This document shows positions 28,174 through 64,000 of a stretch of 64,000 nt of DNA, piece by piece. The stretch spans positions 322,477 through 386,476 of the forward strand of contig JACOXI010000003.1 in NCBI GenBank assembly GCA_016176335.1. The letters run 5' to 3'. The notes under the pieces were generated by a model, which saw only the letters and a list, made by a program, of their open reading frames with translations, was not told the origin of the DNA and searched no databases. A program made the translations under genes and the position numbers. The number at the start of each line of letters is the position of its first letter. Position 1 is the first letter of the stretch. This DNA comes from Candidatus Daviesbacteria bacterium (GTDB taxonomy: Bacteria > Patescibacteriota > Microgenomatia > Daviesbacterales > UBA10151).

Positions 28174-29568
28174 TTACTGTGTGTTATGCAGTATTAAGAC
28201 TTTATCTCTATCTTCTTTAAGAATCTTATAAGCATTCTTGGAGATATTAGGATTATTCAGACTATTTTTGCGAGTAATCATCAAAAAATCATCTTTACTC
28301 TGCAAAAGTGAAACAAGTCGTTCTATTTGTATTTGATCTACACGTTCCTTTTTTGAGTAAAATATTGCCGCGGGTACAAAATCTCCATCTATCAAAAGGG
28401 GCTGTGGATATTTACTTGCCTCTTCCGATAATATTGCCTCATCTGAAACAAAGGCGGGGATATCAATAAATTGATGCCAAATCATTTTAATTTGGTTAAA
28501 GTAAATTATTGCATTAAAGATTATAAAAATTGTATAGATTTGATATTTCCAATTTTTTAGGTATCTTTCCAAAACAGTAAAAGTAAATCCAAAGTAAACC
28601 AAGATTAAAATAGGGAAAGTAGGTATCAGGTGCCAAATTTGTATTTTGGGTGAGAAAGCAATTGGAGCCATAAAGGAAACAAAAAAAATTATAAATATGA
28701 AAAATCTCTTCTGTTTAAGGAAAACTGACAACATTATCGCTATCAAACTTCCCCAAAACCATTTTCCAATACCACTATGGAGATACTCTTTGGCAAGATT
28801 TAAGTTAGCAAGATAGGTAGAGTTAAAAGTTGCTCCGCGCAGGCCTATCCCTAAATAATTTCGGGTAAAGTTATGATCCTGAATTAGTTGAAGTGCAAAC
28901 CAACCTAATACAGTGGTTAAAAATAACACGACCGGTAATATTAAATCCTGCCACTTATATAGTTTATTCTTGTAAAAAATCAAAATGAGAGTTGGAATAA
29001 TTACCAGTGGTACCATAGTTTTTGTTAAAAATAATAAGACTAAACTTATTACAAGAGGAACAATAAATCTTTTATTTTCAATAGCCTTAATTGCCAAGAA
29101 AATAGTGAGAAGAAAAAACATGGTTAACAAAATATCAAGATCTCCAAGTCGGGATCTGTACACAAACCAAGTGGCTGAAGATAAAGCTATACCTGAAATT
29201 AAACCAACCAAAGGATTAAAAAGTTTTCTACCCAGGAAACAGAGTAGAATAATACTGATAATACCTGCTAATGCAGAAGGAAATCTGGTCCAAAACTCAT
29301 TTATCCCAAATATTTTATAAGTTAACGCCATTATCCAATAACCTGTTGGAGGATGATCAGTATAAAGACGATTGTTCCAGCTCAAGTTTATAATATTACC
29401 TGTTTTAAGAATATTTCTGGCCACTTCCGCATACCAAGCTTCATCCCAACTTACTAAGGAAGTCTGGCCTAATTTATATAGAAATAAAGGAAGCGTCAGT
29501 ATTACTAATACAGAAACGATTAGGTAGAATAAATAATTTGGGCTAATTGTTTTAAACGGTTTCATCAC
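28174..29568 (-). CDS. GT-C membrane glycosyltransferase, PMT/ArnT-like (DE-motif type)
   Basis: Polytopic (>10 TM). The first periplasmic loop carries SWDEAWYAEVARNIL ... HPPTGYW, resembling the DE motif and loop of the GT39/GT83 families. Confidence 0.65.
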   Translation of the reverse strand: MMKPFKTISPNYLFYLIVSVLVILTLPLFLYKLGQTSLVSWDEAWYAEVARNILKTGNIINLSWNNRLYTDHPPTGYWIMALTYKIFGINEFWTRFPSALAGIISIILLCFLGRKLFNPLVGLISGIALSSATWFVYRSRLGDLDILLTMFFLLTIFLAIKAIENKRFIVPLVISLVLLFLTKTMVPLVIIPTLILIFYKNKLYKWQDLILPVVLFLTTVLGWFALQLIQDHNFTRNYLGIGLRGATFNSTYLANLNLAKEYLHSGIGKWFWGSLIAIMLSVFLKQKRFFIFIIFFVSFMAPIAFSPKIQIWHLIPTFPILILVYFGFTFTVLERYLKNWKYQIYTIFIIFNAIIYFNQIKMIWHQFIDIPAFVSDEAILSEEASKYPQPLLIDGDFVPAAIFYSKKERVDQIQIERLVSLLQSKDDFLMITRKNSLNNPNISKNAYKILKEDRDKVLILHNTQ

Positions 29569-29595
29569 AAGTAGTATATCATCATATAATTAGAT

Positions 29596-31143
29596 ATGAT
29601 TTTCAAAATGAACATTTTTTCAAAAAACATCACGGCGCTTCTTTTTATTTTAATTGTTTTCAATACTCTACTGAGTGCTTACTGGTTATTACAAAAAGAT
29701 ATTCATTATGATGTGGATGTATCACGAGATTTTTTGGTAATGGATGATATAGTTAGAAATCATCATTTTACTCTTTTGGGTCCTCGTTCAGGAGCTATCC
29801 CGGGTATTTTCCATGGTCCCTTATGGTTCTATATTAATTTACCAGCCTTTTTAATTGGTGGAGGCAATCCTTTGGTAGTAGCTTGGTTTTGGTTTTTCTT
29901 ATCAATAATTTTTTTACTGATTGTCTTTTTGGTGGCAAAGAAATTATTTGATTTTAAAGTAGCCATATTTTCCGCACTTCTTCTTTCTGTCAACTCAATT
30001 GTCAATCCTTCAATTGGCTTGAAAAATTTTTATAATCCATATGGCGCAGTATTTTTGACTCCAGTATTCTTCTGGTGGTTTTATCAGTACATTACTACTC
30101 TAAAGGTGAAATACTTGATTTTTAGTCTATTTACTTTAGGTTTTATCATTCAATTTCAGATGGCTTTTGGGGTACCAGTTCTTATCACTATCACTATTTT
30201 TTTACTGTTTTTTTTATTTTATAAAAAAAGACTTTATGATTGTCTAGCTTATTTCATACTAGTAATTCCGCTTATGACTTTTATTATATTTGACCTAAGA
30301 CATAATGGTTTACAGTTTAATGCATTGGTTCAATTCCTAGGTCAGCACCATGGTTCTGCAGGTATTATATTAAATATCAGTGATCGTGTTAGGGCTGTAT
30401 TTTTTGATTTTTTTGATTTTTTCTCTCCGGGAAAAAATCTTCTAACTGTTTTTTTTGCAATTTTCTTTCTGACTGTCATCAGCATTCTTTTAAAGAAGAG
30501 TATTTATCCACAGAAAAAAATTTATTGGTTATTTATCTATTTATTTTTTGGATTTTGGATAATCTCTTTATTTTTTCAGGGAGGGGTGGGAAATTATTTT
30601 TGGCCATTCCTTCCTCTACTAATTATTATATTTTCTTCTTTTTATAATTTCCTGAATAAAAAAATTTTTATGATGGTTTTTATCTTAGTTTATTTAGTCA
30701 ATCTTTACACAGGTATTTTAGCAATTACTAATTTTAAATCCGATATTAATAAAAGAGGCCCGCATAGTTGGGGCTTTAATTTGCAAGTTGCAAAGGAAAT
30801 TTATATGGATGCTAAGGAAGATTTTGGATATTATACTTTCTCGCCCGACAGGTTTGCCTACCAACAAAGATACGCAATGATTTATGCTAAAAAGTTTTTT
30901 CCAAACTTAAATTCATATCCTTCAACAAAAAAGCCGAACACATATTTAATAGAAGTAGATCCGCCTAAAGATAGACCAGAGCTGGATAGTATTGGCTGGA
31001 GAATTAGTGAGGTTGGAATTAACCGTTCTCCAGATCAAACTTTTCGTTTTGATTTTATTCAAGTTGAGAAATACTTATTGTCTGATAAGGAGATTAAAAT
31101 TCCGGCAAATCCTTTAATTCTTGATTATATGTTTGTAAGATAG
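29596..31143 (+). CDS. GT-C-like polytopic membrane glycosyltransferase paralog (FDLRHN-motif subfamily)
   Basis: 515 aa. N-terminal loop HYDVDVSRDFL ... LLGPRSGAIPGIFHGPLWFY. Mid-protein motif FDLRHNGLQF. Soluble C-terminal domain. Paralog of 32637-34175. Confidence 0.55.
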   Translation: MIFKMNIFSKNITALLFILIVFNTLLSAYWLLQKDIHYDVDVSRDFLVMDDIVRNHHFTLLGPRSGAIPGIFHGPLWFYINLPAFLIGGGNPLVVAWFWFFLSIIFLLIVFLVAKKLFDFKVAIFSALLLSVNSIVNPSIGLKNFYNPYGAVFLTPVFFWWFYQYITTLKVKYLIFSLFTLGFIIQFQMAFGVPVLITITIFLLFFLFYKKRLYDCLAYFILVIPLMTFIIFDLRHNGLQFNALVQFLGQHHGSAGIILNISDRVRAVFFDFFDFFSPGKNLLTVFFAIFFLTVISILLKKSIYPQKKIYWLFIYLFFGFWIISLFFQGGVGNYFWPFLPLLIIIFSSFYNFLNKKIFMMVFILVYLVNLYTGILAITNFKSDINKRGPHSWGFNLQVAKEIYMDAKEDFGYYTFSPDRFAYQQRYAMIYAKKFFPNLNSYPSTKKPNTYLIEVDPPKDRPELDSIGWRISEVGINRSPDQTFRFDFIQVEKYLLSDKEIKIPANPLILDYMFVR

Positions 31144-31148: not shown

Positions 31149-32636
31149 ATGAGATTTTTCCAAAAAACCAAACTTGCCCTTTTATTGATTGTTTTTCTGG
31201 GACTTTTCTTTAGGGTATATAAATTAGAAATTTTTTACCCTTGGGGTCACGACCAAGATCTTTTTGCCTGGATTGCCAAAGATATTGTCATAAATCATCA
31301 TTTTCGTTTAATTGGTCAGGAAACTAGCATTACCGGAGTATTTATTGGCCCCATTTTTTACTATTTAATATCTTTATCATTTGCAATTTTTAATATGAAC
31401 CCACTTAGTGCTGCAGTTGTGACTATTATTATTAGTCTATTCACCATTTTTAGTATATATTGGGTATTTAAAAAGTTCTTTGGACAAAGTGTGGGGATTT
31501 TAGGGTCTTTTTTATATGCAATTTCCCCGGGAGCAGTATTTTTAGATCGCTGGGTAGTACCTACTCAGCCTACAATGCTTTGGACGATTTGGTTTTTGTA
31601 TGTTTTATTATCTACTCTTACAGGAAATTTTAAAATTGTCATACCGCTTGCCATTTTAGTAGGTCTGATTTGGCATATCCATATTGCTTTCATACCTTTA
31701 CTTGTTTTACTGCCTGTTGCTTTTTGGTTGTCGGGGAGAAAACTTCAAGATCTTAAATTTAACCTAAAATCAATGTCAATAACCATTTTGATATTAGTTT
31801 TTTTTCTTGCTCCTTTTTTTGCTTTTGAGCTGCGACATGGTTTTCAACAAATTAAAGGCATAATTAGAGCAAGCTATCAAAAAGCAGATAATTTAGAAGG
31901 GACCAGTAGATTAGGTAAAGTTTTTGAATCCGGTGGAAGATCACTTGCTGGCGCCTTTGTTTTAAGCGGTCCTGCAACAAATCTGGACTCTGGGATTGCA
32001 ACTGCCTTACCGCTTTTATTATTTGGGGCAATTTTATATCTCTGGTCTATCAAAATTTTGAAAAAGGAGCAAGCAGTATTATTTATGGTATGGTTTGTGA
32101 TTGTATTCTTAGGTCAGTATTTCTCCAAAAGAATTATCACCGAATATTATTTTAATAATCTTTTTATTTTACTTTTTTTGATTTTGGCTCTTGTATTGAA
32201 TAAATTAAATAGTTTATCAAAAATGGTACCTGTTAGTTTACTTATGATAATCTATCTACTAACTGTGACAGTTTGGTTTATTAAAAGGGATGATGATCAG
32301 GGAGGATTCTTTTATAAAAGGAAAGCTTTCGAATATATTCAAGCTCATTCGGCTAGCAAAAATTATCCTTGTGTTGCTATAAACTTTATTGAAAGCAAAC
32401 CAGGAGGTGGAAGTGGCTCCAGATATCTTTATTGGTATTACAAGCTGCCTGTAATTGCAGCAGGAAGTTATACTGCTGTCTATAATATTGTCAATCCTTG
32501 GACAATTTCCAAAGATGAAGTGAAGGTAAGGTTCGGTAGTCTAGGGGTAATTATACCTTCTCAAGAAAAGGTTGATCCTAGTCAATGCTTAAAAGCAGAT
32601 CGTCAATTATTACCTTTGTGGGGGTTTACTAACTAA
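31149..32636 (+). CDS. GT-C-like polytopic membrane glycosyltransferase paralog
   Basis: 495 aa. GHDQDLFAWIAKDIV ... LIGQETSITGVFIGPIFYY ... DRWVVPTQPTMLW ... LVGLIWHIHIAFIP ... FELRHGFQQ. Close paralog of the minus-strand gene 35021-36553. Confidence 0.55.
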   Translation: MRFFQKTKLALLLIVFLGLFFRVYKLEIFYPWGHDQDLFAWIAKDIVINHHFRLIGQETSITGVFIGPIFYYLISLSFAIFNMNPLSAAVVTIIISLFTIFSIYWVFKKFFGQSVGILGSFLYAISPGAVFLDRWVVPTQPTMLWTIWFLYVLLSTLTGNFKIVIPLAILVGLIWHIHIAFIPLLVLLPVAFWLSGRKLQDLKFNLKSMSITILILVFFLAPFFAFELRHGFQQIKGIIRASYQKADNLEGTSRLGKVFESGGRSLAGAFVLSGPATNLDSGIATALPLLLFGAILYLWSIKILKKEQAVLFMVWFVIVFLGQYFSKRIITEYYFNNLFILLFLILALVLNKLNSLSKMVPVSLLMIIYLLTVTVWFIKRDDDQGGFFYKRKAFEYIQAHSASKNYPCVAINFIESKPGGGSGSRYLYWYYKLPVIAAGSYTAVYNIVNPWTISKDEVKVRFGSLGVIIPSQEKVDPSQCLKADRQLLPLWGFTN

Positions 32637-34175
32637 ATGAACAAGTTCTTTCCTTCGGAAATGAGATTACTATATTACCTAATTTATGCTTTTATTATGC
32701 TAAATATAATGTTAAGCGCTTGGTGGTTGTTTCATGGTGATATTCGCTACGACGTAGATATAGCCAGAGATTTCCTGTTAATAAAAGAAATTCTCACCAT
32801 TAAACCTTTTACCTTGATAGGATCGCATACCTCAGTAAGTGGAGTTTTCCATGGTCCTTTGTGGTATTACCTCAATGTCCCTGCCTTTTTGATTTCTTCT
32901 GGTAATCCTATTTTCATTGGCTGGTTTTGGTGGGGGCTTTCAATTTTAACACTTATGATATTTTTCTTTGTAACTCAAAAATTATTTAATAAACTTACGG
33001 CTTCTTTGGCAACACTTCTCTACAGCGCAAGCGCAATTATTAATCCTATATACGGCTTAAAGATGTTTTTTCCTCCATATGGTGCTGTGGTTTTATCTCC
33101 TGTATTTTTTTACCTATTTTTAAAATATATCAATAGTAAAAAAGCCAAATATTTGACAGCGGCTTTATTTAGCTTGGGGCTTATTATTCAATTTGAGATG
33201 GCTTTCGGAATCCCAATGTTACTTCTTACCATATTATTTTTGACATTTTTTCTATTTACCAAAAAGTTAGTAAAACATTGGTTAGCTTTCCCCGTAATTC
33301 TTTTACCTTTGTCTACTTTTATACTTTTTGATCTTCGCCATAATTTTTTGCAAACTCTCTCCTTAGTAAGATATGTGACGTCGGAGGTGGGTAAACGTCA
33401 ATTTGATTTGTTTACCATTTTTATAGAGAAGATTAATGGAATTTTCTCCGACACATTTTTCTTATTAACACAGGACAGTAGAATGTTAAGCTGGATATAT
33501 TCTATTTTGTTTATCATTTTAGTTTTCAAAGTTAAACAAAAGACAAAAAAAACCTACTTTTTCTTTTTATATTTTTTCATAGGATATTGGCTTCTTCATC
33601 TTTCTCTAAAACCTCTCTGGAGCACTTATTATTGGCCTCTTTTACCTCTGATTATTATGCTTTACAGTGCCTTCGTAAACTTTTTCTCCAAGAAAGTCTT
33701 TGTAATAATTTATATTCCACTTTTAATTTGGAGTATGTATATAGGTATAAGTTATATTAAAGATTTTAAGATAGATGTGACTGAAAGAGGTAAATATAGC
33801 TGGGCTTTCAATAAGTTAATTGCGGACAGTGTTTTCAAGGATACAGAGAGTGATTTTGGATATTTTATCTTTACTTCTGATCGATGGGTTTATCAAAATT
33901 GGTATGCCTTGGATTTTGTGCAAAAAGATTATCCTCAAAAAAAAGCACATCCTTTCACCAAGCAAAAATTAACCTATTTAATAATAATTGATTATCCAAA
34001 AGATCGTCAGGATCCAGTGAGTCAGGGATGGAGAATAACTGATCTTAAAATTACATCAGAGCCTCAAGAAATAAAAAATATTGATATTGTGCAAATTCAA
34101 AAATATTTCTTAACTGAAGAAGAGATAAAGTCACCAGTAAATCCTTATCTTTTAAATTCAACTTTTTTCAGATGA
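32637..34175 (+). CDS. GT-C-like polytopic membrane glycosyltransferase paralog (FDLRHN-motif subfamily)
   Basis: 512 aa. RYDVDIARDFL ... LIGSHTSVSGVFHGPLWYY ... FDLRHNFLQT. C-terminal soluble domain is alignable with that of 29596-31143. Confidence 0.55.
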   Translation: MNKFFPSEMRLLYYLIYAFIMLNIMLSAWWLFHGDIRYDVDIARDFLLIKEILTIKPFTLIGSHTSVSGVFHGPLWYYLNVPAFLISSGNPIFIGWFWWGLSILTLMIFFFVTQKLFNKLTASLATLLYSASAIINPIYGLKMFFPPYGAVVLSPVFFYLFLKYINSKKAKYLTAALFSLGLIIQFEMAFGIPMLLLTILFLTFFLFTKKLVKHWLAFPVILLPLSTFILFDLRHNFLQTLSLVRYVTSEVGKRQFDLFTIFIEKINGIFSDTFFLLTQDSRMLSWIYSILFIILVFKVKQKTKKTYFFFLYFFIGYWLLHLSLKPLWSTYYWPLLPLIIMLYSAFVNFFSKKVFVIIYIPLLIWSMYIGISYIKDFKIDVTERGKYSWAFNKLIADSVFKDTESDFGYFIFTSDRWVYQNWYALDFVQKDYPQKKAHPFTKQKLTYLIIIDYPKDRQDPVSQGWRITDLKITSEPQEIKNIDIVQIQKYFLTEEEIKSPVNPYLLNSTFFR

Positions 34176-35020: not shown

Positions 35021-36553
35021 CTATTCAACAAACCCAAGCATTGGATCAGTTAAATTGGTATTTTGTCCGCTGCAGGCTGTTTGCATAACTTCTTTGGATG
35101 CAATTTCTGTAGGAGGAATTATCCCGATATGACCGTATTTTGCCCTGACTTCTTTTAAAGCATATTCATTGGGAATAACGATGTTATATACGGGACTGCC
35201 TCGTCCTGCAACTGCAATATGAGCATTTTTTAAAAAGAAGAAATATCTGAATCCCACATTTTCCCCCGGAGAGGTGATGTAATTTATGGAAAAACAAGGG
35301 AAGTTTTTATTTTTTGCATCGTTGGTAATATAATCTACCACGGCCTTCTTTTCTATATAGCCTTTGTGATAAGTATCTTGAGTGATAATGGAAAAGGCAT
35401 TTTTTAATGCAATGACCACCAAAAGAGCTGCTACCAAGATCTTCCCGTAAGGTAAATTTTTATATAGGTAATAAAGGTAAAGAGCGATAATACCCAAAAA
35501 AACAGCTTCAATATTAGTAAAATAATATTCTGAAATAGGCGTTGAGGAGACAGAAAAAAACAAAACTACAGTCAGTACCCAAATATAGAGTGGGATTAGC
35601 TCTTTTGTTTTAATCAACTTCTTTTTCACTAGCCAAAGAGCAGAGGTGAGTATCACTAATGGAAAAAGAAAATTACTGGTTGCCTTGAATGTTTGAGGAG
35701 CGAACAAAAGACTATTAATATTTTTGGTGATCACCTCTATCACTATTTGAAACTTATACCATCCGCTTGCTCCTTCACGGGGGGTGATAAAGTTTTGCAA
35801 AAGATTTGAGGTCTGTTGAAATCCATTTTTAAATTCAAAAATCATTAACGGGAGGGAAATAATAAAAAAGAGCGCTATGAAATTAAAAACTTGTCTAGAC
35901 TTTGGTAATTTTTTGGAAAGTAAGATCGCAAATGGTATTGCAGTAAGTGTGGGAATTAGAGCAATATGGATATGCCAAATCAGACCCACTAAAATGCCTA
36001 ACAATAAAAGTGCAGAAAAATTTCCCCGAGATAACATCACTAATGAATAAAAGTACCAGATAGCCCAAAGAGGTGTGGCGACTGTTGGTACTATCCATCT
36101 ATCAGCATTAACGGTGGTAATTAAAATAGCATATAAAAATGCACCAATTAATCCGGCCTCCTCTTTAAAAAGTTTGGCTAAAATAAAGTAATAGCTAAGA
36201 ATTGTAAAAAGACCCAAGAAGGTTATTGGAATAAGTACTCCAATTGGATCCATTCTGGTGAAGAGAAAGAAGGGTGCCAGAAGATAATAAAAGGCAGGTC
36301 CAATATAAATTCCGGGAGCGGATGTCAGTTGTCCAATCAGTCTTGGGTGATGATTGACAACGATATCTTTTACAACCCAAGAATATAAATCACCGTCATG
36401 ATCAAAACCAAACCTCTCAACTACCTGATATGTTCTGAAGAATAATCCTACAGCCAGAATTAGCCCCAATATAAGAAGATGCCATCTTTTTTTGAGATAA
36501 TTGACTACCTTATGCATCCCTCTGATAGTATCAGCAAAAATTTGAATGTGCAA
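35021..36553 (-). CDS. GT-C-like polytopic membrane glycosyltransferase paralog
   Basis: 510 aa. FDHDGDLYSWVVKDIV ... LIGQLTSAPGIYIGPAFYY ... DRWIVPTVATPLW ... LVGLIWHIHIALIP ... FEFKNGFQQ. Inverted paralog of 31149-32636. Confidence 0.55.
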   Translation of the reverse strand: MHIQIFADTIRGMHKVVNYLKKRWHLLILGLILAVGLFFRTYQVVERFGFDHDGDLYSWVVKDIVVNHHPRLIGQLTSAPGIYIGPAFYYLLAPFFLFTRMDPIGVLIPITFLGLFTILSYYFILAKLFKEEAGLIGAFLYAILITTVNADRWIVPTVATPLWAIWYFYSLVMLSRGNFSALLLLGILVGLIWHIHIALIPTLTAIPFAILLSKKLPKSRQVFNFIALFFIISLPLMIFEFKNGFQQTSNLLQNFITPREGASGWYKFQIVIEVITKNINSLLFAPQTFKATSNFLFPLVILTSALWLVKKKLIKTKELIPLYIWVLTVVLFFSVSSTPISEYYFTNIEAVFLGIIALYLYYLYKNLPYGKILVAALLVVIALKNAFSIITQDTYHKGYIEKKAVVDYITNDAKNKNFPCFSINYITSPGENVGFRYFFFLKNAHIAVAGRGSPVYNIVIPNEYALKEVRAKYGHIGIIPPTEIASKEVMQTACSGQNTNLTDPMLGFVE

Positions 36554-39870: not shown

Positions 39871-40279
39871 TTATCAATCGTTTATTCCCTTCTAATTTTG
39901 CTATAGTTATTTTAGTTGTATTTTTTGGCAAGATTTTCTTTATTTTGCCTGCCCATTCAATTAGGACAATATTTTTTGGATTTGACCAAGTATCATGAAG
40001 CCCAAGTTGTTTTAAATCTTTTAATTTTTCCAGTCTGTATAAATCAACATGGAAGAGGAAATTGTTGGAATTGGGAATTTGGTGTTGGCGGATTAAGATA
40101 AAAGTGGGGGAGATGATTTTTTCCTTAATACCCAATCCTTGTGCAAATCCCTGGGTAAACATGGTCTTGCCTGCTCCTAATTCACCAAAAAGTCCAATAA
40201 CTCCACCTTGAAAATTTTTAGCCAGTTTTTTGGCAAGGTCTTTAGTTTCTTTTTCCGAATATGTTAAATATTGCTTCAC
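39860..40279 (-). CDS. tsaE: tRNA t6A37 biosynthesis ATPase TsaE (YjeE)
   Basis: P-loop GGVIGLFGELGAGKTMFTQGFAQGLGI at the canonical distance from the N-terminus. Start taken at GTG (VKQYL). The longer ATG-initiated ORF to 40327 overlaps the upstream gene by 86 nt. Confidence 0.7.
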   Translation of the reverse strand: MKQYLTYSEKETKDLAKKLAKNFQGGVIGLFGELGAGKTMFTQGFAQGLGIKEKIISPTFILIRQHQIPNSNNFLFHVDLYRLEKLKDLKQLGLHDTWSNPKNIVLIEWAGKIKKILPKNTTKITIAKLEGNKRLITID

Positions 40280-49327: not shown

Positions 49328-49330
49328 AGA

Positions 49331-54200: not shown

Positions 54201-56381
54201 GTGAATCATCTAAAATCCCTCTCTACGAAATCGCTATCTGTATTTTTCCCTCTATATAATGAGGAAGGAAATGTGGAAATTCTGGTTGAAAAAGCCTTAA
54301 AAGTCTTGGAGGGATTAAAACTTAAAGATTATGAAATACTTCTTATAAATGATGGCTCAACAGACAACACCGGAAAAGTTGCAGATAAGTTGGCTGTTGG
54401 GAATCGAAAAATTAGAGCTATTCACCACCAGAAAAATTTAGGTTACGGTGAGGCCTTAAAGAGTGGATTTTATAATGCAAAATTTGATCTGATTGTTTAT
54501 ACGGATGGGGATGGACAGTTTGATTTTTCGGAAGTCACCAAATTTTTGGAAACAATTGAAGACTATGATTTATTGATTGGATACAGGATTAAAAGGCAGG
54601 ACCCTATTTTTCGAATTCTCTTTAAAAAAGGCTGGACACTCTCTCTTTGGATAATGTATCAGCTAACCTTAAGAGATGTTGATTGTGGTTTTAAGATGAT
54701 CAAGCGGGAAGTACTGGAAAAAATTCCCAACCTGGAATCTCAAAGAGGTGCAATGATCAATGCCGAGATTGCCATAAAGGCTAAAAAGTATGGCTTCAGG
54801 GTTGGTCAGATCGGAGTGAGCCACTATCCAAGATTATCCGGCAAGCCGACAGGTGCAAGCTTAAAAGTGATCGTTCGTTCGTATGTTGATCTTTTAAGGC
54901 TTTGGTGGAAATTAAAAGATCAAAAATATGTTCTTATATTGCTTTTTTTAACTCTCGCGCTGGCAACATCCTTTCGTTTCTATAGGATTGATGCTTATAT
55001 GACTTTTTTGGGAGATGAAGGAAGGGATGCTCTTATTATGAAAAGAATGCTTTCGGGAGATTTTCCTCTGATCGGTCCTCCTACATCTTTTGGGAATATA
55101 TATTTGGGTCCGCTGTACTACTATATGATGTTTGTTCCAATGGTTCTGACTGGTTTTAATCCGGTTTCGGCAGCGGCCATGAATGCTTTAATAGGTCTTT
55201 TAACTGTCGGGTTTATCTATTATCTTGGCAAAATTTGGTTTGGAAGAATTTCGGGACTGATTGCAGCGTTCCTTTATGCCATATCTCCGGTGACAATAAT
55301 TTATTCCCGTTCGTCCTGGAATCCTAATCCCGCACCTTTTTTTGCCCTGCTGGGAATTTTTAGTTTATATAAACTAAACAAAGGTGGAAATTTCCGTTGG
55401 CTTATTGCAACAGGCGCATCATTTGCAGCTGCTTTACAGATGCATTATCTGGCTATAATTTTAACTCCTATTGGGGCTTTCTTGTGGTTACATGAAATCT
55501 GGTACAGATCTTCAAAGAAGATGCACATTAAAAATTTATTTTCAGGAACATTGCTTGGGATAATTTCTTTTCTTGCAGTTATGTCACCGCTTTTTATTTT
55601 CGATTTAAGACACAATTTTTTAAACTACAGGGCAATCACAACTCTTTTTTCACAAAGCTCTGCTGTTGGTTGGGATATCATTCCGAATATAGTAAGGATT
55701 CCCTCTCTTTATTCTTATAATTTGATCGGAAGATATATGACGGGGGAAAATTACTTATTGCAAGTTATACTTACTGTTTTAATTATTATTCCTTTTGTCA
55801 GGAGAAAAACTTTAAACTGGCCGATTTTGGCTTTGGGAGTATGGTTAATTGTTGGTCTTTTCGGGATTTCCTTTTATCAGCAGAGCGTTTATGATCATTA
55901 CTTGGGGTTTTTAAACCCTGCCCCGTTTTTACTTTTCGGGTCTCTGGCTAACCTTAAATTAGGTTTTCGTAAACTGATATATGTTGTACTTTTCATATTA
56001 GTAATTGCTTTGACTTGGGTAAATTTGCAGAAAAATCCTCAACTTAATCCTCCAAACAGGCAGCTTAAAAGGACGCAAGATGTGGCAAAATTTATAATTA
56101 ATCAAGCAAAGGGTGAGGATTTTAACTTTGCACTACTGGCGAAAAATAATTATGATTCAGCTTATTCATTTTATCTTGGGGAATATGGTCACAAACCAAA
56201 GAACGTGCCGTTTGAAAAAACAGATCAATTATTTGTAGTTTGTGAAGATCCTTGTGATCCCATATATTCTCCAAAATATGAGATTGCCGCGTTTGGCTGG
56301 ACGCTTGTTGAAAGAGAATGGGATTTTGAGGGTATTCAAATATATAAGCTTATTCATAATCCGGAGGAATTAAAACAATGA
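54201..56381 (+). CDS. fusion protein: N-terminal GT2 polyprenol-phosphate sugar synthase plus C-terminal GT-C membrane glycosyltransferase
   Basis: Residues ~10-240 are GT2 (SVFFPLYNEEGNVEIL ... LINDGSTDNTGKV ... DGDGQ). Residues ~250-726 carry the GT-C paralog motifs (RFYRIDAYMTFLGDEGRDAL ... LIGPPTSFGNIYLGPLYYY ... FDLRHNFLNY) and a soluble C-terminal domain. Confidence 0.7.
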   Translation: MNHLKSLSTKSLSVFFPLYNEEGNVEILVEKALKVLEGLKLKDYEILLINDGSTDNTGKVADKLAVGNRKIRAIHHQKNLGYGEALKSGFYNAKFDLIVYTDGDGQFDFSEVTKFLETIEDYDLLIGYRIKRQDPIFRILFKKGWTLSLWIMYQLTLRDVDCGFKMIKREVLEKIPNLESQRGAMINAEIAIKAKKYGFRVGQIGVSHYPRLSGKPTGASLKVIVRSYVDLLRLWWKLKDQKYVLILLFLTLALATSFRFYRIDAYMTFLGDEGRDALIMKRMLSGDFPLIGPPTSFGNIYLGPLYYYMMFVPMVLTGFNPVSAAAMNALIGLLTVGFIYYLGKIWFGRISGLIAAFLYAISPVTIIYSRSSWNPNPAPFFALLGIFSLYKLNKGGNFRWLIATGASFAAALQMHYLAIILTPIGAFLWLHEIWYRSSKKMHIKNLFSGTLLGIISFLAVMSPLFIFDLRHNFLNYRAITTLFSQSSAVGWDIIPNIVRIPSLYSYNLIGRYMTGENYLLQVILTVLIIIPFVRRKTLNWPILALGVWLIVGLFGISFYQQSVYDHYLGFLNPAPFLLFGSLANLKLGFRKLIYVVLFILVIALTWVNLQKNPQLNPPNRQLKRTQDVAKFIINQAKGEDFNFALLAKNNYDSAYSFYLGEYGHKPKNVPFEKTDQLFVVCEDPCDPIYSPKYEIAAFGWTLVEREWDFEGIQIYKLIHNPEELKQ

Positions 56382-57106
56382 AATTGTCTGTTGTAATACC
56401 TGCATATAATGAGGAAGGAAATCTTAAGAAAGGGGTTTTGGAGGGGGTTGAAAAATATTTGAAAGGGAAAGATTATGAGGTAATTATTGTTGATGACGGT
56501 TCAGCAGATGAAACAAGGAAGATAGTAAAAAAATATATATCCAAAAATGAGAACTTTAAGTTAATTGAGAATTCTCACGGTGGGAAAGCAATGGCGGTGA
56601 TGACCGGGATGTTGGCAAGTAAGGGAGAGGTAATTTTATTTACCGATATGGATCAGGCAACACCGATAAAGGAATGGGATAGATTTTCTCCTAAATTTGA
56701 GCAAGGTTATGATTTGGTGATTGGTTCCCGCAGGGGGAGGAAAGGAGCGCCCATGGTGAGAAAACTGGCAGCTTGGGGGTTTTCCGTTCTTCGTGGAATA
56801 ATTTTAGGTCTGCCATTTTCCGATACCCAATGTGGATTTAAAGCTTTTAATAGAAAATCAATTGAAAAAATTATTCCAAAGATTAAGGATGAGTGGGGAG
56901 TGGTGCACTTTAGGGGGGGAGCTGTTAATGCCGGATTTGATGTCGAGCTATTATATCTTGCCAAGAAATACGGCTTTAAGGTTGCAGAGGTTGATGTTGA
57001 GTGGAACTATGTTGATACCGAAAGAGTACAGGTTATCAAAGATGCCCTGGCAGCAATATATGATATGCTCCGAATTAGAATTAATGATTTATCAGGTAAA
57101 TATTAA
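56378..57106 (+). CDS. GT2 polyprenol-phosphate glycosyltransferase (DPM1/GtrB-like), stand-alone
   Basis: MKLSVVIPAYNEEGNL ... VIIVDDGSADETRKIV ... DMDQ. 242 aa with no membrane domain. Start overlaps the upstream stop (ATGA). Confidence 0.8.
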   Translation: MKLSVVIPAYNEEGNLKKGVLEGVEKYLKGKDYEVIIVDDGSADETRKIVKKYISKNENFKLIENSHGGKAMAVMTGMLASKGEVILFTDMDQATPIKEWDRFSPKFEQGYDLVIGSRRGRKGAPMVRKLAAWGFSVLRGIILGLPFSDTQCGFKAFNRKSIEKIIPKIKDEWGVVHFRGGAVNAGFDVELLYLAKKYGFKVAEVDVEWNYVDTERVQVIKDALAAIYDMLRIRINDLSGKY

Positions 57107-58375: not shown

Positions 58376-59875
58376 GTGAAACTTCTTGTAAAGCATAAGG
58401 TTGAATTGTTTATTCTTTTGATCCTTATCGCCTGTTATTTTATTTTAAGGCTTCCAAATCTTACTCTTCAGCCCATTTTTGCGGATGAGGCCATCTATAT
58501 CCGCTGGGCCCAAGTTATGAGAGCGGAGCCAACCTTGCGGTTTATTTCCATGCAAGATGGTAAAACCCCTCTTTTTATGTGGACAATGATGCCTATTTTT
58601 AAAATTTTTGAAGACCCCTTATTTGCCGGAAGGGTTTTATCAGTTACATCCGGTTTCTTTTCACTTTTGGGCGTATATTTCCTTTCCAAAAAAATTTTTA
58701 ATAAGCAAACAGCTTTTTGGGCCGCCCTTTTGTATGTAATTACTCCTTATACTGTTTTTTTTGACAGGATGGCTTTGGTGGATTCCATGCTTTCCGCATT
58801 TGGCATTTGGATAATTTATTTTGCAATTTGGCTGTCAAAAACTTTAAGGCTGGATATTGCCATGATTTTAGGTTACCTTTTGGGAGGAGCGGTTTTAACC
58901 AAAACTTCGGGGATGGTAAATTTTTTGCTTGTGCCTGTTTCTATTTTGGGATTCAACTTTGAAAAAAGTAAGAGAAAACCTTTTTTAAAGCTTGCCTTAC
59001 TTTGGGGAGTGGCCATAGGTATAGGTTTAATAATGTATAATCTGTTAAGACTGGGACCGGAATTTCACCAGCTATCTTCTAGAAATCAGGATTATGTGTT
59101 TTCCCCCCTAGAACTTATCGGTAGACCCTTGGATCCATTTTTACCGCATTTTCAAGATATTTTTGATTGGTTCCCCAAACTCTTAACTTGGCCGATTCTT
59201 TTTTGCGGAGCTGTAGGTTTATTTTATGTTTTGACTAACTTTCACAAACTAGGTCTGGTTTTATTTTTGTGGGGTTTTATACCTTTAATTTTGGATATGG
59301 TATTTTTAAAAACTTTTACGGCAAGATATTTACTGCCAACAATCCCCACACTCTTAATTATTTCAGCATATGGCATTTATCATATACTCCCAAGATTTGT
59401 TTCTCACAGACCCCTATCTTTCGTACTGATGCTTTTAGTGGTACTACCTTTACCCTTATATTTTAATTATTTGCTTCTGACTAATCCTCAAAAAGCACCT
59501 TTACCTTCTGAAGAAAGATCGGGGTATTTTGAAGCTTGGACTGCAGGTTATGGTTTTTCTGAAATTTCACAATTTTTAAAAGAGCAAAAGAAAGCAGGTA
59601 AGGTGGTAGTTGGAACAGAAGGTTTTTTTGGAACTTTGCCAGACGGATTGCGCATCTATTTGGATAAAGATGATATAGCAATAATTGGCAGTCATGCTAC
59701 AATTTCCGCACAGATTAGAAATGCGGCTAAAGATAATTTAACATTCTTTGTCGGCAACAAAAGCAGAGTTTCGGGAAGCGTTAATAATGTTGTTTTACTT
59801 AAAGAATATCCGAAAGCAAAACCCTTAGAAAAGTTAGATCAAGATGCCATAGTTTTATATAAGGTTTTACCATAA
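58376..59875 (+). CDS. GT-C membrane glycosyltransferase, ArnT/PMT-like (DE-motif type)
   Basis: First loop IFADEAIYIRWAQVM ... QDGKTPLFMW resembles the ArnT/PMT catalytic DE loop. ~11 TM and a C-terminal soluble domain. Confidence 0.65.
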   Translation: MKLLVKHKVELFILLILIACYFILRLPNLTLQPIFADEAIYIRWAQVMRAEPTLRFISMQDGKTPLFMWTMMPIFKIFEDPLFAGRVLSVTSGFFSLLGVYFLSKKIFNKQTAFWAALLYVITPYTVFFDRMALVDSMLSAFGIWIIYFAIWLSKTLRLDIAMILGYLLGGAVLTKTSGMVNFLLVPVSILGFNFEKSKRKPFLKLALLWGVAIGIGLIMYNLLRLGPEFHQLSSRNQDYVFSPLELIGRPLDPFLPHFQDIFDWFPKLLTWPILFCGAVGLFYVLTNFHKLGLVLFLWGFIPLILDMVFLKTFTARYLLPTIPTLLIISAYGIYHILPRFVSHRPLSFVLMLLVVLPLPLYFNYLLLTNPQKAPLPSEERSGYFEAWTAGYGFSEISQFLKEQKKAGKVVVGTEGFFGTLPDGLRIYLDKDDIAIIGSHATISAQIRNAAKDNLTFFVGNKSRVSGSVNNVVLLKEYPKAKPLEKLDQDAIVLYKVLP

Positions 59876-59881: not shown

Positions 59882-61642
59882 ATGTTTAACTTTCTTGCAA
59901 ACAGATCTTTTCTTGAAAAGATTTCATATAAATCTTGGATCATTTTAATTGTCATATTGACCATCCCCACCTTTTATCAACTGATTAGGCCCGGTTTTTT
60001 CTTTATGCAAGATGACCTGCAAGCAATGAGAGTACATCAGATGTTTAGGTGTTTGCAGGATTTTCAAATTCCCTGCAGGTGGGTGCCTGACATGGGTTAT
60101 CAGTATGGCTATCCCCAGTTTTTATATTACCCTCCCAGTGTATATTATTTGGGTGCTTTAATTCATTTATTTGCTGTTCAAATCATAGATTCTGTCAAAA
60201 TTCTGTTTATCTTCGGTTATATTCTTTCAACACTTTTTATGTTTATTTTTTTAAAAGCTTTTTTTGATGGAGAATCTAAAGAAAAAAGATTTGTCAGTAC
60301 TACCCTGCCTGCATTTTTGGGGGCAATGCTTTATACATACATTCCATATAAAGCATTAGAGGTCTATGTTAGAGGTGCTTTAAACGAATTTTGGAGTCTG
60401 GTTTTCTTTCCTTTGATTTTTTGGGCAATCTATCAGCTGATAAGCAAACAAAAGTTAAAATATGTAATTTTCCTTGCTCTCTCCACAGCTGCACTGATGC
60501 TTACTCACAATTTAATGACACTTATTTTTGCGCCACTTTCCATACTTTGGTGTTTAAGTTTGCTCGTATTAAAAAAGACTTGGAAAGTGATCCCCAAAAT
60601 ATTTTTGGGAGGACTTTTGGGAATAGGACTGGCAGCTTTTTTTACACTACCGGTAATTTTTGAAGGGAAATACGCTCATCTGGAAACTCTGGTAGGCGGA
60701 TATTTTGACTACAGGCAACACTTTGTTTCTATCAATAGATTATTGATTTCAAACCAATTTGGTTACGGGTCATCTGGGTTTGGACAAGATAATAATTTAA
60801 CTTTATCAACAGGACAAATACAATGGATGGTGGCTTTATTTGGATTTATTTTAGCGCCATTCTTTTTAAAAAAGCATAAAAATATAGCAATACTTGTAAT
60901 AATCAATTCTTTAGTTGAACTTGTAGTTTTATTTTTGATTCATCAAAAATCCTCTTTCATTTGGGAGCGAATACCAATTATGGTCTATTTACAATTTCCC
61001 TGGAGATTTTTGACAGACAGTATTTTTCTACTGTCTTTTTTAGGAGCGGGAACAATTTTCTTTATTAGTCAAATCAACATTAAAGGAGCAAAAATTTTTG
61101 CAACTTTGATTTTAATAGGAATCTTCCTACTGCATGCTCAATTTTTTAAACCTAAAGAGTGGTTTGGTATTTCCGACAAGGATAAATTTTCCGGCCCTTT
61201 TTGGGAGAAAGAATTAACAATCAGCATTTTTGATTACCTGCCCGCCTATGCAGAACTTCCTCCCAACAAAATTGCACCGGATACCCCTGAAGTTTTGGAA
61301 GGAAAGGTACGCTTTATAACCTACAGGAAGGGAAGCAACTACCAGATAGGAGAAGTTGAGGCAAGGGAGGATTCTGTCATTAGATTGCCGTTATTTGATT
61401 TTCCGGGGATGAGAGTAACAGTAGATGGAAAAGTAGTTGGACACAAAAATGATGACTGCAGGGGAGAGGAATATTGTTTGGGTTTAATAACCTTTGATTT
61501 GCCTCAAGGATCCCACCTTATAAAAGCACAACTGATGGATACACAAATTAGGAGTATAGGGAATATAATTACCTTGACCTCTTTTCTTTTACTTTTAGTA
61601 TTAGTTGGTAAAAACTATGGTTACAAAAAAGTTCATCTTTAA
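59882..61642 (+). CDS. YfhO-like polytopic membrane protein (GT-C glycosyltransferase candidate)
   Basis: N-terminal loop GFFFMQDDLQAMRVHQMFRCLQDFQIPCRWVPDMGYQYGYPQFLYY parallels the YfhO N-terminal D-x-x-Q-Y ... FYSW ... GlG ... YY region. Many TM helices and a C-terminal soluble domain. Confidence 0.5.
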   Translation: MFNFLANRSFLEKISYKSWIILIVILTIPTFYQLIRPGFFFMQDDLQAMRVHQMFRCLQDFQIPCRWVPDMGYQYGYPQFLYYPPSVYYLGALIHLFAVQIIDSVKILFIFGYILSTLFMFIFLKAFFDGESKEKRFVSTTLPAFLGAMLYTYIPYKALEVYVRGALNEFWSLVFFPLIFWAIYQLISKQKLKYVIFLALSTAALMLTHNLMTLIFAPLSILWCLSLLVLKKTWKVIPKIFLGGLLGIGLAAFFTLPVIFEGKYAHLETLVGGYFDYRQHFVSINRLLISNQFGYGSSGFGQDNNLTLSTGQIQWMVALFGFILAPFFLKKHKNIAILVIINSLVELVVLFLIHQKSSFIWERIPIMVYLQFPWRFLTDSIFLLSFLGAGTIFFISQINIKGAKIFATLILIGIFLLHAQFFKPKEWFGISDKDKFSGPFWEKELTISIFDYLPAYAELPPNKIAPDTPEVLEGKVRFITYRKGSNYQIGEVEAREDSVIRLPLFDFPGMRVTVDGKVVGHKNDDCRGEEYCLGLITFDLPQGSHLIKAQLMDTQIRSIGNIITLTSFLLLLVLVGKNYGYKKVHL

Positions 61643-63284
61643 TTTTTGGCCGTTCTTTCTTTTGTTGCTTTTTACAACGCTCATTGCATGGCCGATATTT
61701 TTACCCGGTTATTTTTCTCACCATGATGATTTGCAAGTGATGAGGATATTTGAGATGAAAAAATGTATAGATGATTGGCAAATTCCCTGCAGGTGGGTGC
61801 CTGATTTAGGTTTTGGAAACGGTTACCCACTTTTTAACTATTACAATGTTTTCCCTTATTATATAGGTGCAATAGGAAGCTATTTTTTAGGCTTTATCGG
61901 TAGTGCAAAACTGCTTTTTTTCATGGCGGTAACCCTTGCTGGAGTATCCATGTATCTTCTTGCAGAGGAACTTTTTGGCACATACCCTGCTCTTTTGGCC
62001 GCCACTCTTTATATGTTTGCTCCGTACAGGGCACTTGATATTTATGTAAGAGGTGCAGTAGCAGAAAGTTTTTCACTTGCAATCATCCCTCTTGTTTTGT
62101 ATTTTGCCTTCAAACTTACCAAAAAAGATCTGCCAAGATTTAAGATAGGACTTGCTTTATCTTTTGCCGCGTTTTTAACCAGCCACAATATCATGACCTT
62201 GTTGTTTTTACCGGTCATTTCTGCATTTTTTTTGATTTGGTTTTGGAAAAGAGAATTTACGATAGTTAAATCTTTAATTCTTTATCTGTTGTTGGGATTT
62301 GGATTATCCGCTTTTTTTATAGTCCCGGCATTCTTGGAGAAAAATTTGGTACAAATAGATAATTTAGTGAGATTAGAATTGGATTTCAGAGGCCATTTTG
62401 TAACTTTATATCAGTTATTTTTAGACAGAGGGTGGGGGTATGGAGCATCATTCCCGGGAGTTGGTGATACCATCTCGTTTCAAATTGGCTGGCCCCATTG
62501 GTTTTTGGCACTTGGCTCAATTGTCAGCTGGTTTTTTGTAAAGAAGAGGGATTACAAATGGCTCATTCTCTATTGTGCAACACTGCTAATTTTTGCAGGA
62601 TCTATCTTTATGACCCATATACGATCTGCTTTTATTTGGGAGCAAATTGGGATATTAAGATTCACCCAGTTTCCTTGGCGCTTTTTGTCTATTGTAATAT
62701 TTAGTTCAAGTTTACTGGGAGGATTTTTTGTATATAACCTCAAAGAATCTGTTGCTAAAATTGTGACAGTAATACTAATTATAGTTACAGTTTTTTTAAA
62801 CTGGAACTATTTTAAGCCACAGCAGTTCATATTTGATTTAACTGATAAAGAAAAATTAAGCGGGAAACTTTGGGAGACTCAACAAAAGGCTGCTATTTTA
62901 GATTATTTACCAATTCAATCTGTGGAGCCTTTAGAGCCAGCCCCCCCCAAACCGATTATTGTTAAGGGCGATGCAGAGATTAAAAATTTTGAAAACAAAT
63001 CTAACAGATGGCAATTTGAAGCAAATGTTTTTGATTCGTCTGTTGTGGAAGTTCCTGTTTTTGATTTTCCTGATTGGCAAGTATTTGTTAATGGTAAAAA
63101 GATAGACCATTCCAACAAAAATTATCTGGGAAGAATCAGTTTTAATCTAAGCAGAGGGGATTATTTTGTTGTCGGCAAGTTTGAGAATACATTGATTAGG
63201 ACAATTGCCAATATAATCTCTGCTATCTCTATATTGGTTATTATTTTTATTCTTTATGGAAAAATTAGAAAAACTGATAACTAG
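61605..63284 (+). CDS. YfhO-like polytopic membrane protein, paralog
   Basis: GYFSHHDDLQVMRIFEMKKCIDDWQIPCRWVPDLGFGNGYPLFNYY. Clear paralog of 59882-61642. Its start overlaps the upstream gene. Confidence 0.5.
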   Translation: MVKTMVTKKFIFNFWPFFLLLLFTTLIAWPIFLPGYFSHHDDLQVMRIFEMKKCIDDWQIPCRWVPDLGFGNGYPLFNYYNVFPYYIGAIGSYFLGFIGSAKLLFFMAVTLAGVSMYLLAEELFGTYPALLAATLYMFAPYRALDIYVRGAVAESFSLAIIPLVLYFAFKLTKKDLPRFKIGLALSFAAFLTSHNIMTLLFLPVISAFFLIWFWKREFTIVKSLILYLLLGFGLSAFFIVPAFLEKNLVQIDNLVRLELDFRGHFVTLYQLFLDRGWGYGASFPGVGDTISFQIGWPHWFLALGSIVSWFFVKKRDYKWLILYCATLLIFAGSIFMTHIRSAFIWEQIGILRFTQFPWRFLSIVIFSSSLLGGFFVYNLKESVAKIVTVILIIVTVFLNWNYFKPQQFIFDLTDKEKLSGKLWETQQKAAILDYLPIQSVEPLEPAPPKPIIVKGDAEIKNFENKSNRWQFEANVFDSSVVEVPVFDFPDWQVFVNGKKIDHSNKNYLGRISFNLSRGDYFVVGKFENTLIRTIANIISAISILVIIFILYGKIRKTDN

Positions 63285-64000
63285 ATACTGGTTTTTTATA
63301 ATATTAATTTTTTTTATCCCGGCTGTTTGGGCACTTTTTGTGAAAGGATATTTTGGGGCATCGGATGATTTGCATGTTGCTTGGCTTTATGAACTTGATA
63401 GAGCGATTAAATTAGGACAAATCCCTCCGCGTTTTGTTCCGGACTTAAGTTTTGGCTTTGGATATCCTCTTTTTAATTTTGTTTTCCCATTACCCTTTTA
63501 TATCGGGGAGATATTTCATCTTTTGGGATTAACCTTAGTGGATAGTGTCAAGGCGGTTCTTTTTGTAAGCATTCCCATTTCTGGAATATTTATGTATCTG
63601 CTGCTTCGGGAGTTTACAAAAAGCAGGTTTGCCTTTGTTGGTGCAATGCTCTATATTTACGCGCCTTACAGAGCAGTGGATATTTACGTGAGGGGTGCAA
63701 TAGGGGAGGCCTTAAGTTTTATTTTCTTGCCTTTGGTGATACTTGCCATAGTCAAGTTAAAAAGTTCTAAACATTGGAAATGGGCAGGATTGGGGGCAAT
63801 ATCGGTCGCTTCCCTAGTGTTGTCGCACAATATAGCAGCATACATGTTCTTCCCTTTTGTGATTGTGTTTTTTTTCTTACAATTTTTTTCCACAGCAGCT
63901 TGGAAAGCATTTTTCTTAAGATTATTTTTAATGTTTTTTTTGGGTTTTTTGATCAGTATTTATTTTTGGTTGCCGGCACTTTTAGAGAGCAGTCTGCTCA
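63257..64000 (+). CDS. YfhO-like polytopic membrane protein, third tandem paralog (3' end outside window)
   Basis: From ATG 63257: MEKLEKLITRYWFF ... GYFGASDDLHVAWLYELDRAIKLGQIPPRFVPDLSFGFGYPLFNF. The open reading frame continues to the window edge. Confidence 0.5.

Follow-up and report, generated by a model that had tools for sequence, protein, structure and literature searches.

Here we describe a stretch of 64,000 nucleotides, called the window below and numbered from its own first letter, from the genome of a groundwater bacterium, Candidatus Daviesbacteria (contig JACOXI010000003.1), in which twelve open reading frames (ORFs) between position 28174 and the window end encode polytopic membrane proteins that are confirmed as GT-C-type glycosyltransferases of four related families. 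They stand together with three GT2 domains, predicted to make polyprenyl-phosphate sugars, and with genes of sugar-nucleotide metabolism. A preliminary description of the sequence had counted at least eleven polytopic GT-C-like proteins in about 36 kb, besides three GT2 lipid-phosphate synthases, rmlABCD, gmd and a GalE-like gene, and this inventory was recovered in full: all twelve ORFs are present, polytopic and assignable to GT-C by Pfam, BLASTP, profiles or models, and the donor-side genes have their matches in Pfam, NCBIfam and the PDB. GT-C genes take up about 18.1 of 35.8 kb. What is unusual here is the ratio of twelve GT-Cs to three synthases, a protein in which a synthase and a GT-C are fused, and a GT-C subfamily that has so far turned up in Microgenomates only.

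As a whole, we read the region as the main envelope-glycosylation machinery of this bacterium, a many-armed transmembrane system that works step by step on an acceptor which is either mixed or not a protein, and give this reading a probability of about 0.55. Its generic core, namely that a GT2 makes a lipid-phosphate sugar and a GT-C transfers it outside, is by itself highly probable.

Twelve GT-C proteins in four related families

Each gene is named here by its first coordinate. A crude Kyte-Doolittle scan finds 7–13 hydrophobic segments in every one of the twelve ORFs, the last of which begins at 63256, not at 63257 as first described, and is cut by the window end. All-against-all BLASTP separates them into groups A, B and C and a lone protein, 52993, which we call family D. 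Family A has six members, all joined by BLASTP: 29596..31143 (+ strand, 515 amino acids, aa), 31149..32636 (+, 495 aa), 32637..34175 (+, 512 aa), 35021..36553 (-, 510 aa), 38323..39870 (+, 515 aa) and residues ~243–726 of the fusion protein at 54201..56381 (+, 726 aa in all). Among them 29596 is 42.5% identical to 32637, the pair 31149 and 35021 (35.7% identity, E 7e-83) forms a subgroup with D-x-D in the first outer loop (HDQDLF and HDGDLY), and 38323 is linked to 29596 at E 8e-19 and to 32637 at E 2e-20. The real start of 32637 is probably 32661, which gives 504 aa. Family B, ArnT/PMT_2-like, consists of 28174..29568 (-, 464 aa, ten hydrophobic segments) and 58376..59875 (+, 499 aa). Family C is the YfhO-like tandem array of three that had been proposed, YfhO/PTPS-related by our matches, and comprises 59882..61642 (+, 586 aa, QDDLQ loop), 61605..63284 (+, 559 aa, HDDLQ loop) and 63256..64000 (+, N-terminal 248 aa up to the window end, SDDLH loop); 61605 has BLASTP matches to both neighbours and is 36.8% identical to 59882, and mutual identity in the array is 37–43%. 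The family D protein, 52993..54162 (-, 389 aa, NFDGLEY loop), is a minimal member made of the transmembrane part only, like ALG3, PIG-M and PimE.

Curated models detect this set unevenly. Pfam PMT_2 passes its cutoff in 28174 (66.6 bits), 31149 (31.3 bits), the C-terminal half of 54201 (48 bits) and 58376 (47.8 bits); the PMT model, with a cutoff of 22.7, passes in 28174 (27.4 bits) and fails in 58376 (21.6 bits). PTPS_related passes in 61605 only (30.6 bits vs 26.4), while the two other array members stay below the YfhO cutoff of 28.5 (59882 at 23.6, 63256 at 21.1). Sub-threshold matches to PMT_2 or YfhO are also found in 29596 (PMT_2, 20.5 bits), 35021 (PMT_2, 25.4 bits, just below cutoff) and 52993, and the Pfam search gave no match for 32637 or 38323. 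No GT-C member reaches any NCBIfam equivalog cutoff, and NCBIfam matches are lacking for all five stand-alone family A proteins.

The relationship between the families was established by profile-profile comparison and by structure. Family profiles were built from the window sequences and the homologs recovered from 78 related loci, and hhalign gave probabilities of 99.3% for A–B (with 58376 as the family B reference), 98.9% for B–C, 98.8% for B–D and 97.9% for A–C. AlphaFold models of 32637 (pLDDT 89.8) and 52993 (pLDDT 80.8, pTM 0.86) were compared with the PDB by Foldseek, and the top 28, 37 and 21 matches are all of GT-C fold and nearly all glycosyltransferases. For family A the best match is ArnT (TM-score 0.57–0.59), and the model of 32637 has eleven predicted transmembrane helices and an outer C-terminal alpha/beta domain; the model of 52993 is an all-helical membrane bundle whose top 37 matches include STT3, PglB (TM-score 0.56), Pmt4, AftA, ALG3/9, PIG-M and PimE. 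Sequence searches against the PDB gave no match for the profiles of families A and D or for the single sequences 58376 and 61605. For 28174, phmmer aligned the protein with Cupriavidus metallidurans ArnT (5EZM) at E 2.2e-14 with the motifs in register, WDEAWYAE over PDEGRYAE and LYTDHPP over YFEKPP. The assignment is thus by model for A and D, by the ArnT sequence match for B and by profiles only for C.

An identity as unrelated transporters, which had been named as the outcome that would speak against the preliminary description, is rejected because all top fold matches are GT-C, and the motifs discussed below align in register. Pseudogenes are likewise rejected, with the ORFs intact and the catalytic aspartate retained, and so is recent tandem duplication, since the paralogs are only 22–43% identical. 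The fold has its limit as a guide to substrates: the closest matches act on proteins (Pmt4) and on glycans or lipids (ALG12, ArnT, AftA) alike, so that on these models the GT-C fold does not tell acceptor types apart.

All four families carry an acidic motif in the first outer loop: WDEA or ADEA in B, an aspartate followed by RD or in DxD form in A, DDL in C and NFDGLEY in D, where D50 is invariant in 35 sequences. The DE loop that had been noted in 28174 and 58376 is present (WDEAWY and ADEAIY), the former aligning with the DE of ArnT. In family A, the profile alignment to B sets D-[IV] where B has DE, with D41 (numbering of 32637) over the aspartate of the DE motif and FHGP over the (E)KPP position of ArnT; this mapping to ArnT is a two-step sequence alignment and covers the first-loop motifs only. 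D41 is invariant in the six window copies, likewise L60, G62, G73/P74 and Y78. Among 147 distinct family A ORFs from the window and the 78 Microgenomates loci, D41 is found in 133, R44 in 116, D45 in 126, G62 in 145, F71 in 126, H72 in 96, G73 in 137, P74 in 131 and Y78 in 141. An N-terminal L-I-G-P loop, as first described, does align, but the literal LIGP occurs in two copies only, the others reading LLGP, LIGS or LIGQ; 38323 has the literal LIGPST as well as GPAWYY.

The preliminary description had further given a mid-protein motif, F-[DE]-[LF]-[RK]-H-[NG]-F, for six proteins. It falls in the same alignment column in all six family A copies, but the literal pattern holds only for 31149 (FELRHGF), 32637 (FDLRHNF, residues 231–237) and 54201 (FDLRHNF, at residue 467), while 29596 has FDLRHNG, 35021 has FEFKNGF with asparagine for histidine, and 38323 has FNFKHNL. 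A better consensus is F-[DE]-[LIV]-[RK]-[HN]-x-F, with F231 in 133 of the 147 ORFs, [DE]232 in 144, [RK]234 in 138, H235 in 112 (asparagine in 25) and F237 in 119. The motif had also been called previously unannotated, and appears so because the Pfam PMT_2 match stops one to about twelve residues before it; NCBI, on the other side, already names some homologs "glycosyltransferase family 39 protein".

In 32637, clusters of lysine and arginine at residues 168–169, 209–211, 297–305 and 352–353 mark the cytoplasmic loops when the positive-inside rule is applied to the model helices. On this ground the mid-protein motif would sit at the outer end of the seventh transmembrane helix (TM7), where it opens an outer loop of about 50 residues with two amphipathic helices, and the C-terminal alpha/beta domain of family A would lie outside. 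In Cupriavidus ArnT, residues K85 and R270, the equivalents of Burkholderia cenocepacia ArnT K69 and R254, presumably contact the undecaprenyl-phosphate head group. In the Burkholderia enzyme, function depends on K69 of the YFEKP motif and on R254, which lies in a later periplasmic loop (PMC5377068). By analogy to this essential arginine, family A has a basic residue in the loop after TM7, and we propose that H72 and the pair [DE]232/[RK]234 form a putative donor-phosphate site.

Predicted donor synthesis, the fusion protein and conserved gene order

The first of the GT2 genes, 51812..52996 (+), joins Glycos_transf_2 to a GtrA_DPMS_TM transmembrane domain, and residues 3–352 of its 394 match dolichol-phosphate mannose synthase (DPMS) of Pyrococcus furiosus (5MLZ) at E 5.2e-28, which suggests a polyprenyl-phosphate hexose synthase, the hexose being probably mannose. 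The second is the N-terminal domain of the fusion protein 54201 (residues ~1–235, Pfam match at 13–175, 92 bits), with matches to ArnC, GtrB and DPMS at about E 1e-14. The third, 56378..57106 (+, 242 aa, Glycos_transf_2 102 bits), overlaps the stop codon of the fusion gene, has no hydrophobic segment, is 36% identical to the fusion's GT2 domain, and has GtrB, ArnC and DPMS as its best PDB matches (E 7e-16). All three are predicted by homology to be of polyprenyl-phosphate sugar synthase type; their top NCBIfam matches, PgfS, ArnC, dolichyl-phosphate hexose transferase and PpgS, remain below the equivalog cutoffs.

Gene 51812 is the last of a co-directional, partly overlapping run which begins with rmlA, rmlB, rmlC and rmlD of the dTDP-L-rhamnose pathway (47523..50751, +; Pfam and NCBIfam top matches, dTDP-glucose 4,6-dehydratase at 447.8 bits, above its cutoff) and continues with gmd for GDP-mannose 4,6-dehydratase (50741..51793, +; Pfam GDP_Man_Dehyd 308 bits, NCBIfam gmd 295 bits). 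The position of gmd between rmlD and the DPMS-like GT2 is kept in relatives. No recognisable partner of gmd, either fcl (GDP-fucose synthase) or rmd (GDP-rhamnose reductase), was seen in the window. A GalE-like UDP-hexose 4-epimerase gene lies apart from the run, at 37349..38275 (-; Pfam Epimerase 211 bits, NCBIfam galE 257.6 bits vs a cutoff of 262.3).

In the fusion protein 54201 the GT2 domain precedes one transmembrane helix and then the aspartate-bearing loop, and this order places the GT2 inside and the GT-C site outside. The fusion is conserved over more than 120 clusters, with 62–90% identity in Daviesbacteria. In a search over 1.84 billion cluster representatives, both halves have mostly stand-alone proteins as relatives, the GT2s of about 230–250 aa and the GT-Cs of about 500 aa, and some ten more distant clusters (32–41% identity), of which three are named Beckwithbacteria, Microgenomates and Patescibacteria, are full-length fusions; judged from these sequences, the fusion appears lineage-restricted. 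By the Rosetta-stone argument, the existence of 54201 also suggests that soluble GT2s and family A GT-Cs act as physical pairs.

The genes that were searched have their nearest database relatives in Candidatus Daviesbacteria and in other Microgenomates, a part of the Candidate Phyla Radiation (CPR); the best non-identical matches are 73–92% identical, which places the window close to sequenced Daviesbacteria. Gene order is kept in such relatives in both halves of the region. For the first half, a relative that is 65% identical at 32637 agrees with the window in gene order all the way from SecA to FtsX, the family A genes included, apart from an inserted glnA, and the first GT-C gene abuts secA there as it does here. 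For the second half, two other relatives keep the order RF2, short TsaB, CAP, rmlA–D, gmd, GT2-GtrA, 52993, fusion, GT2, PMT_2 and YfhO-like array. Four related genomes, of Daviesbacteria type, have a separate ortholog at the corresponding position for every one of the six GT-Cs between 28 and 40 kb (52–73% identity); in the same genomes SecA is 78–80% and neighbouring non-essential genes are 62–71% identical. The homologs of 52993 show 66–92% identity over more than 120 clusters. These one-to-one syntenic orthologs, together with the conservation of 52993 and the fusion, indicate that the paralogs are old, non-redundant and vertically inherited.

Scanning with the four family profiles over 83 loci showed that 6–7 GT-C genes per about 20 kb are common in Microgenomates (for instance in L046, L057, L001, L004 and L011 of our locus collection), so that the high GT-C density belongs to the clade rather than to this genome. 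Family A, missed or weakly detected by curated models, is so far found only in Microgenomates within a scan of the genome collection that used one narrow peptide pattern, [IV]xG[VLI]FHGPLW. Many records with Microgenomates-type loci (L003, L006, L009, L010 and others) carry the title "uncultured Gammaproteobacteria"; they are metagenome-assembled genomes from binchicken / SRP co-assemblies, and the title looks like a placeholder or mis-assignment. In one relative (L083), a gene for a Wzx-type flippase (PF01943, Polysacc_synt; 19714-21186 of that locus) begins 1 bp after the PMT_2/YfhO-like array, which corresponds to a position just past 64000 of the window. It is followed there by a gene for a protein of 1135 aa with a weak DUF3863 match, which overlaps the end of the flippase gene.

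A proposed pathway and its alternatives

The following pathway is what homology suggests. On the cytoplasmic face, the GT2s 51812, 54201 (N-terminus) and 56378 would load single sugars from nucleotide sugars onto polyprenyl phosphate, sharing a sugar-nucleotide economy with rmlABCD, gmd and the galE-like gene. The lipid-linked sugar would then be flipped outward, for which the GtrA-like domain of 51812 and a Wzx-type flippase are candidates. On the outer face, the twelve proteins, whose GT-C fold is established and whose activity is predicted, would each move a sugar from a few lipid donors to a specific acceptor position, using the conserved aspartate of the first outer loop; family A may also use the TM7-end motif and the FHGP element, both proposed to hold the donor phosphate, and the fusion protein, a single polypeptide, may both produce and use up its own donor. 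The set would thereby build or decorate one conserved complex surface glycoconjugate step by step, as mycobacteria build lipoarabinomannan and arabinogalactan with many GT-Cs. Gram-positive wall polymers and O-antigens are known to be modified in this general way, by a GT-A, a flippase and a GT-C (PMC8035078, PMC11127046).

Several points weigh against the whole of this reading. No gene for acceptor synthesis (TagO/WecA-type primer, polymerase, LCP ligase or ABC exporter) was identified in the window, and no free-standing GtrA or Wzx gene lies inside it, the GtrA-like domain occurring only as a fusion in 51812. Twelve GT-Cs on three synthases are unusual for the classical paired systems, and some of the paralogs could be inactive or partner subunits; PIGU, a non-catalytic subunit of GT-C fold, is among the fold matches. 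The NCBIfam equivalog scores are too far below their cutoffs to assign donor sugars, and what we propose for the F-[DE]-x-[RK]-H motif is drawn from its position and from analogy.

A serious rival, or else a parallel function, is protein O-glycosylation of PMT-like or Pgf-like type, by which mannose or other hexoses would pass from polyprenyl phosphate onto serine and threonine of secreted proteins as they leave the Sec translocon. As the main job of the system we consider it unlikely. Protein 28174 passes the Pfam PMT cutoff and shares the DE loop with 58376, but the PMT model fails for 58376 and is absent from the other ten, and the NCBIfam Pmt equivalog matches 28174 only, at 28.3 bits vs a cutoff of 800. 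PgfS, of the streptococcal Pgf protein glycosylation system, is the top NCBIfam match of all three GT2s and a GalE-like epimerase is present as in Pgf, yet the PgfS scores are 57–82 bits vs 500. Pmt4 is a top fold match, whereas the fold is equally near to the glycan- and lipid-acting ALG12, ArnT and AftA, and Pfam detected neither a MIR domain nor any other module for protein binding. The gene next to secA, here and in relatives, is the first GT-C gene, but such adjacency may be chance in a compact genome. What is more, bacterial O-mannosylation as known so far requires a single Pmt and not a set of twelve GT-Cs. Pili, S-layer proteins and a secreted protein encoded between the two gene groups would be the candidate targets. 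The latter, 40242..41474 (-, 410 aa), has a signal peptide, a C-terminal transmembrane helix as anchor and two repeats of about 130 aa joined by a Pro/Ser/Thr-rich linker, TTPSPTPSPTPSTSPSPNSSSSPSP; it has no Pfam or NCBIfam match and evolves fast, with 37–47% identity to its syntenic orthologs. It is a plausible, if speculative, O-glycosylation acceptor or surface adhesin.

A more far-reaching version of stepwise envelope assembly seems to us doubtful, and more so than protein O-glycosylation. It would see a hitherto undescribed, lineage-specific surface glycoconjugate built almost wholly outside the membrane, by a dozen non-redundant GT-Cs fed with two or three lipid-monophosphate sugars, in which 54201, and by extension the pairs of soluble GT2 and family A protein, would make, translocate and transfer the sugar without a separate flippase.

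Improbable, in our estimate, is a set of interchangeable genes for surface variation, as in Gtr-type seroconversion, where side-chain sugars would be placed at different polymer positions in evasion of phages or hosts and with fast turnover between strains. Classical three-component systems do owe their diversity to serotype-specific GT-Cs (PMC11127046), identity among family A members falls to about 40% within Microgenomates, and genomes differ in how many GT-C genes a locus has. Against this, the paralogs of the 28–40 kb half have positional orthologs in four genomes at identities (52–73%) like those of their non-essential neighbours (62–71%), few genes are as well conserved as 52993 and the fusion (62–92%), and no mobile elements or phage genes occur among the Pfam-annotated ORFs. 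Stepwise assembly is favoured over serotype variants because the paralogs of 28–40 kb have stable syntenic orthologs and the gene order of 52–64 kb is kept.

Finally, the "oversized island" of the preliminary description has not stood: although genes of related function are densely clustered and GC content falls to 0.31–0.33 over 28–34 kb and 38–40 kb, vs 0.36–0.43 elsewhere, horizontal acquisition is rejected as hardly credible, given that housekeeping genes are interleaved, gene order is kept in several relatives in both halves, other Microgenomates loci are of comparable density, no integrase, transposase, mobility or phage gene was found among the Pfam-annotated window ORFs, and tRNA and Rfam scans of the window gave a single tRNA-Glu, at 16.9 kb, about 11 kb upstream of the glycosyltransferase region and none flanking it. 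The GC dips (31–43% is the range across the window) are mild, and with synteny conserved they are not read as foreign origin; low GC over the family A genes would be expected of membrane proteins rich in Phe, Ile, Leu, Tyr, Asn and Lys in an AT-rich genome, and this is probably its source.

Known systems, neighbouring genes and significance

Among the closest known systems are the three-component ones (GtrA/GtrB/Gtr*, CsbB/GtcA/YfhO, GacI/J/K/L and Lactococcus Csd; PMC8035078, PMC11127046), which likewise combine a synthase of GT-A/GT2 type with a polytopic GT-C bearing an acidic outer-loop motif. Both PMT_2-type and YfhO-type GT-Cs are represented in them, as here; the soluble GT2 56378 recalls the cytoplasmic GT-A variant proposed for GacI of Streptococcus pyogenes; and on the flipping side a GtrA-type domain is present here too, with a Wzx-type flippase in relatives. 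Unlike those systems, which pair one-to-one (three pairs in Bacillus subtilis, three in Lactococcus lactis), the region sets twelve GT-Cs against three synthases, of which one is joined to its GT-C in a single protein, and half of the GT-Cs belong to a subfamily, known so far from Microgenomates only, that curated models detect weakly or not at all.

To ArnT (GT83) the likeness lies in the Foldseek match of family A, in the direct alignment of 28174 over the DE and RYA/YFEKPP positions and in the shared outer C-terminal alpha/beta domain. In contrast, the NCBIfam ArnT equivalog (PRK13279) gives 48.5 bits vs 567, where ArnT has YFEKPP, 28174 has LYTDHPP and family A has FHGPLW, and RYA is replaced by WYA in 28174. 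No ArnA, ArnB or ArnD genes were seen in the window, and lipid A, on general knowledge of CPR bacteria, is expected to be absent from this organism. With the Pmt enzymes (GT39; yeast Pmt1/2/4 and actinobacterial Pmt with Ppm1/DPMS), the DE loop is shared by 28174 and 58376 only, and the DPMS-like 51812 is encoded nearby; unlike Pmt, the proteins here have no MIR domains detected, and family A has D-[IV] followed by R-D, or D-x-D, instead of DE.

The mycobacterial set of GT-Cs (PimE, AftA–D and EmbA–C, on decaprenyl-phosphate donors, presumably with MptA–C as a further part) offers a parallel in that many GT-Cs draw on few lipid-monophosphate donors and form stable, non-interchangeable paralogs; the fold matches include AftA, AftB, AftD, EmbA and PimE. 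Unlike that set, the present proteins, which have no sequence similarity to it detectable beyond fold, are much smaller and without carbohydrate-binding domains, and their genes are packed in one 36-kb stretch of a genome of about 1 Mb.

The surroundings of the GT-C genes are ordinary. Positions 1–28 kb hold housekeeping genes (PfkB kinase, NrdR, ribonucleotide reductase, Lon, H+-pyrophosphatase, a two-component system, GreA, LysRS, SerRS and SecA), and in between the GT-C genes are those for SecA, NAD(P)HX dehydratase, an F420-ligase-like protein, TsaE, M23 peptidase, FtsX, FtsE, RF2, a short TsaB-like protein and a CAP-domain protein. Upstream of SecA, three ORFs of 445, 422 and 342 aa (17539-18876, 18934-20202 and 24406-25434; -) have no Pfam family in two cases and a borderline DUF7897 match in one, and none matched the GT-C family profiles. 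The TsaB/TsaD-fold protein at 45883-46197 (+) has 104 aa, where the usual TsaB is, we take it, about twice as long; since relatives keep it at the same position with 100–108 aa, it is probably a genuine protein, not a pseudogene. Between glycosyltransferase groups there are two convergent zinc-finger genes: 57145-57657 (+), whose product of 170 aa has three tandem Top1-type zinc ribbons and is also found at this position in a relative (L081/L083), and 57659-58261 (-), whose product of 200 aa has two treble-clef fingers.

Of the interpretation first offered, the enzyme class, the subfamilies, the lipid-phosphate synthase partners and the general function stand, while the island does not. We found no description of an expansion of GT-C, GT39 or PMT_2 proteins in CPR bacteria, Patescibacteria or Microgenomates in open-access papers and preprints, which is weak evidence for novelty. 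The genes themselves are already public and the mechanism class is established, so the advance is incremental unless the product or the coupling proves new. As targets for experiments we would name the DPMS-like 51812, the fusion 54201, the conserved minimal GT-C 52993 and the family A proteins with their signature motif; the fusion could serve as a compact model for coupling the synthesis and the use of a donor across the membrane.

CPR bacteria have genomes of about 1 Mb and a minimal metabolism, often live attached to other cells, and little is known of the make-up of their surface. In such an organism, about 18 kb of conserved chromosome given to twelve GT-Cs and three synthases marks extracytoplasmic glycosylation as a core, selected function, and the bacterium very probably sugar-coats its cell surface from outside. 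If the glycoconjugate were in fact lineage-specific and assembled almost wholly outside the membrane, it would follow a logic otherwise known mainly from mycobacteria.

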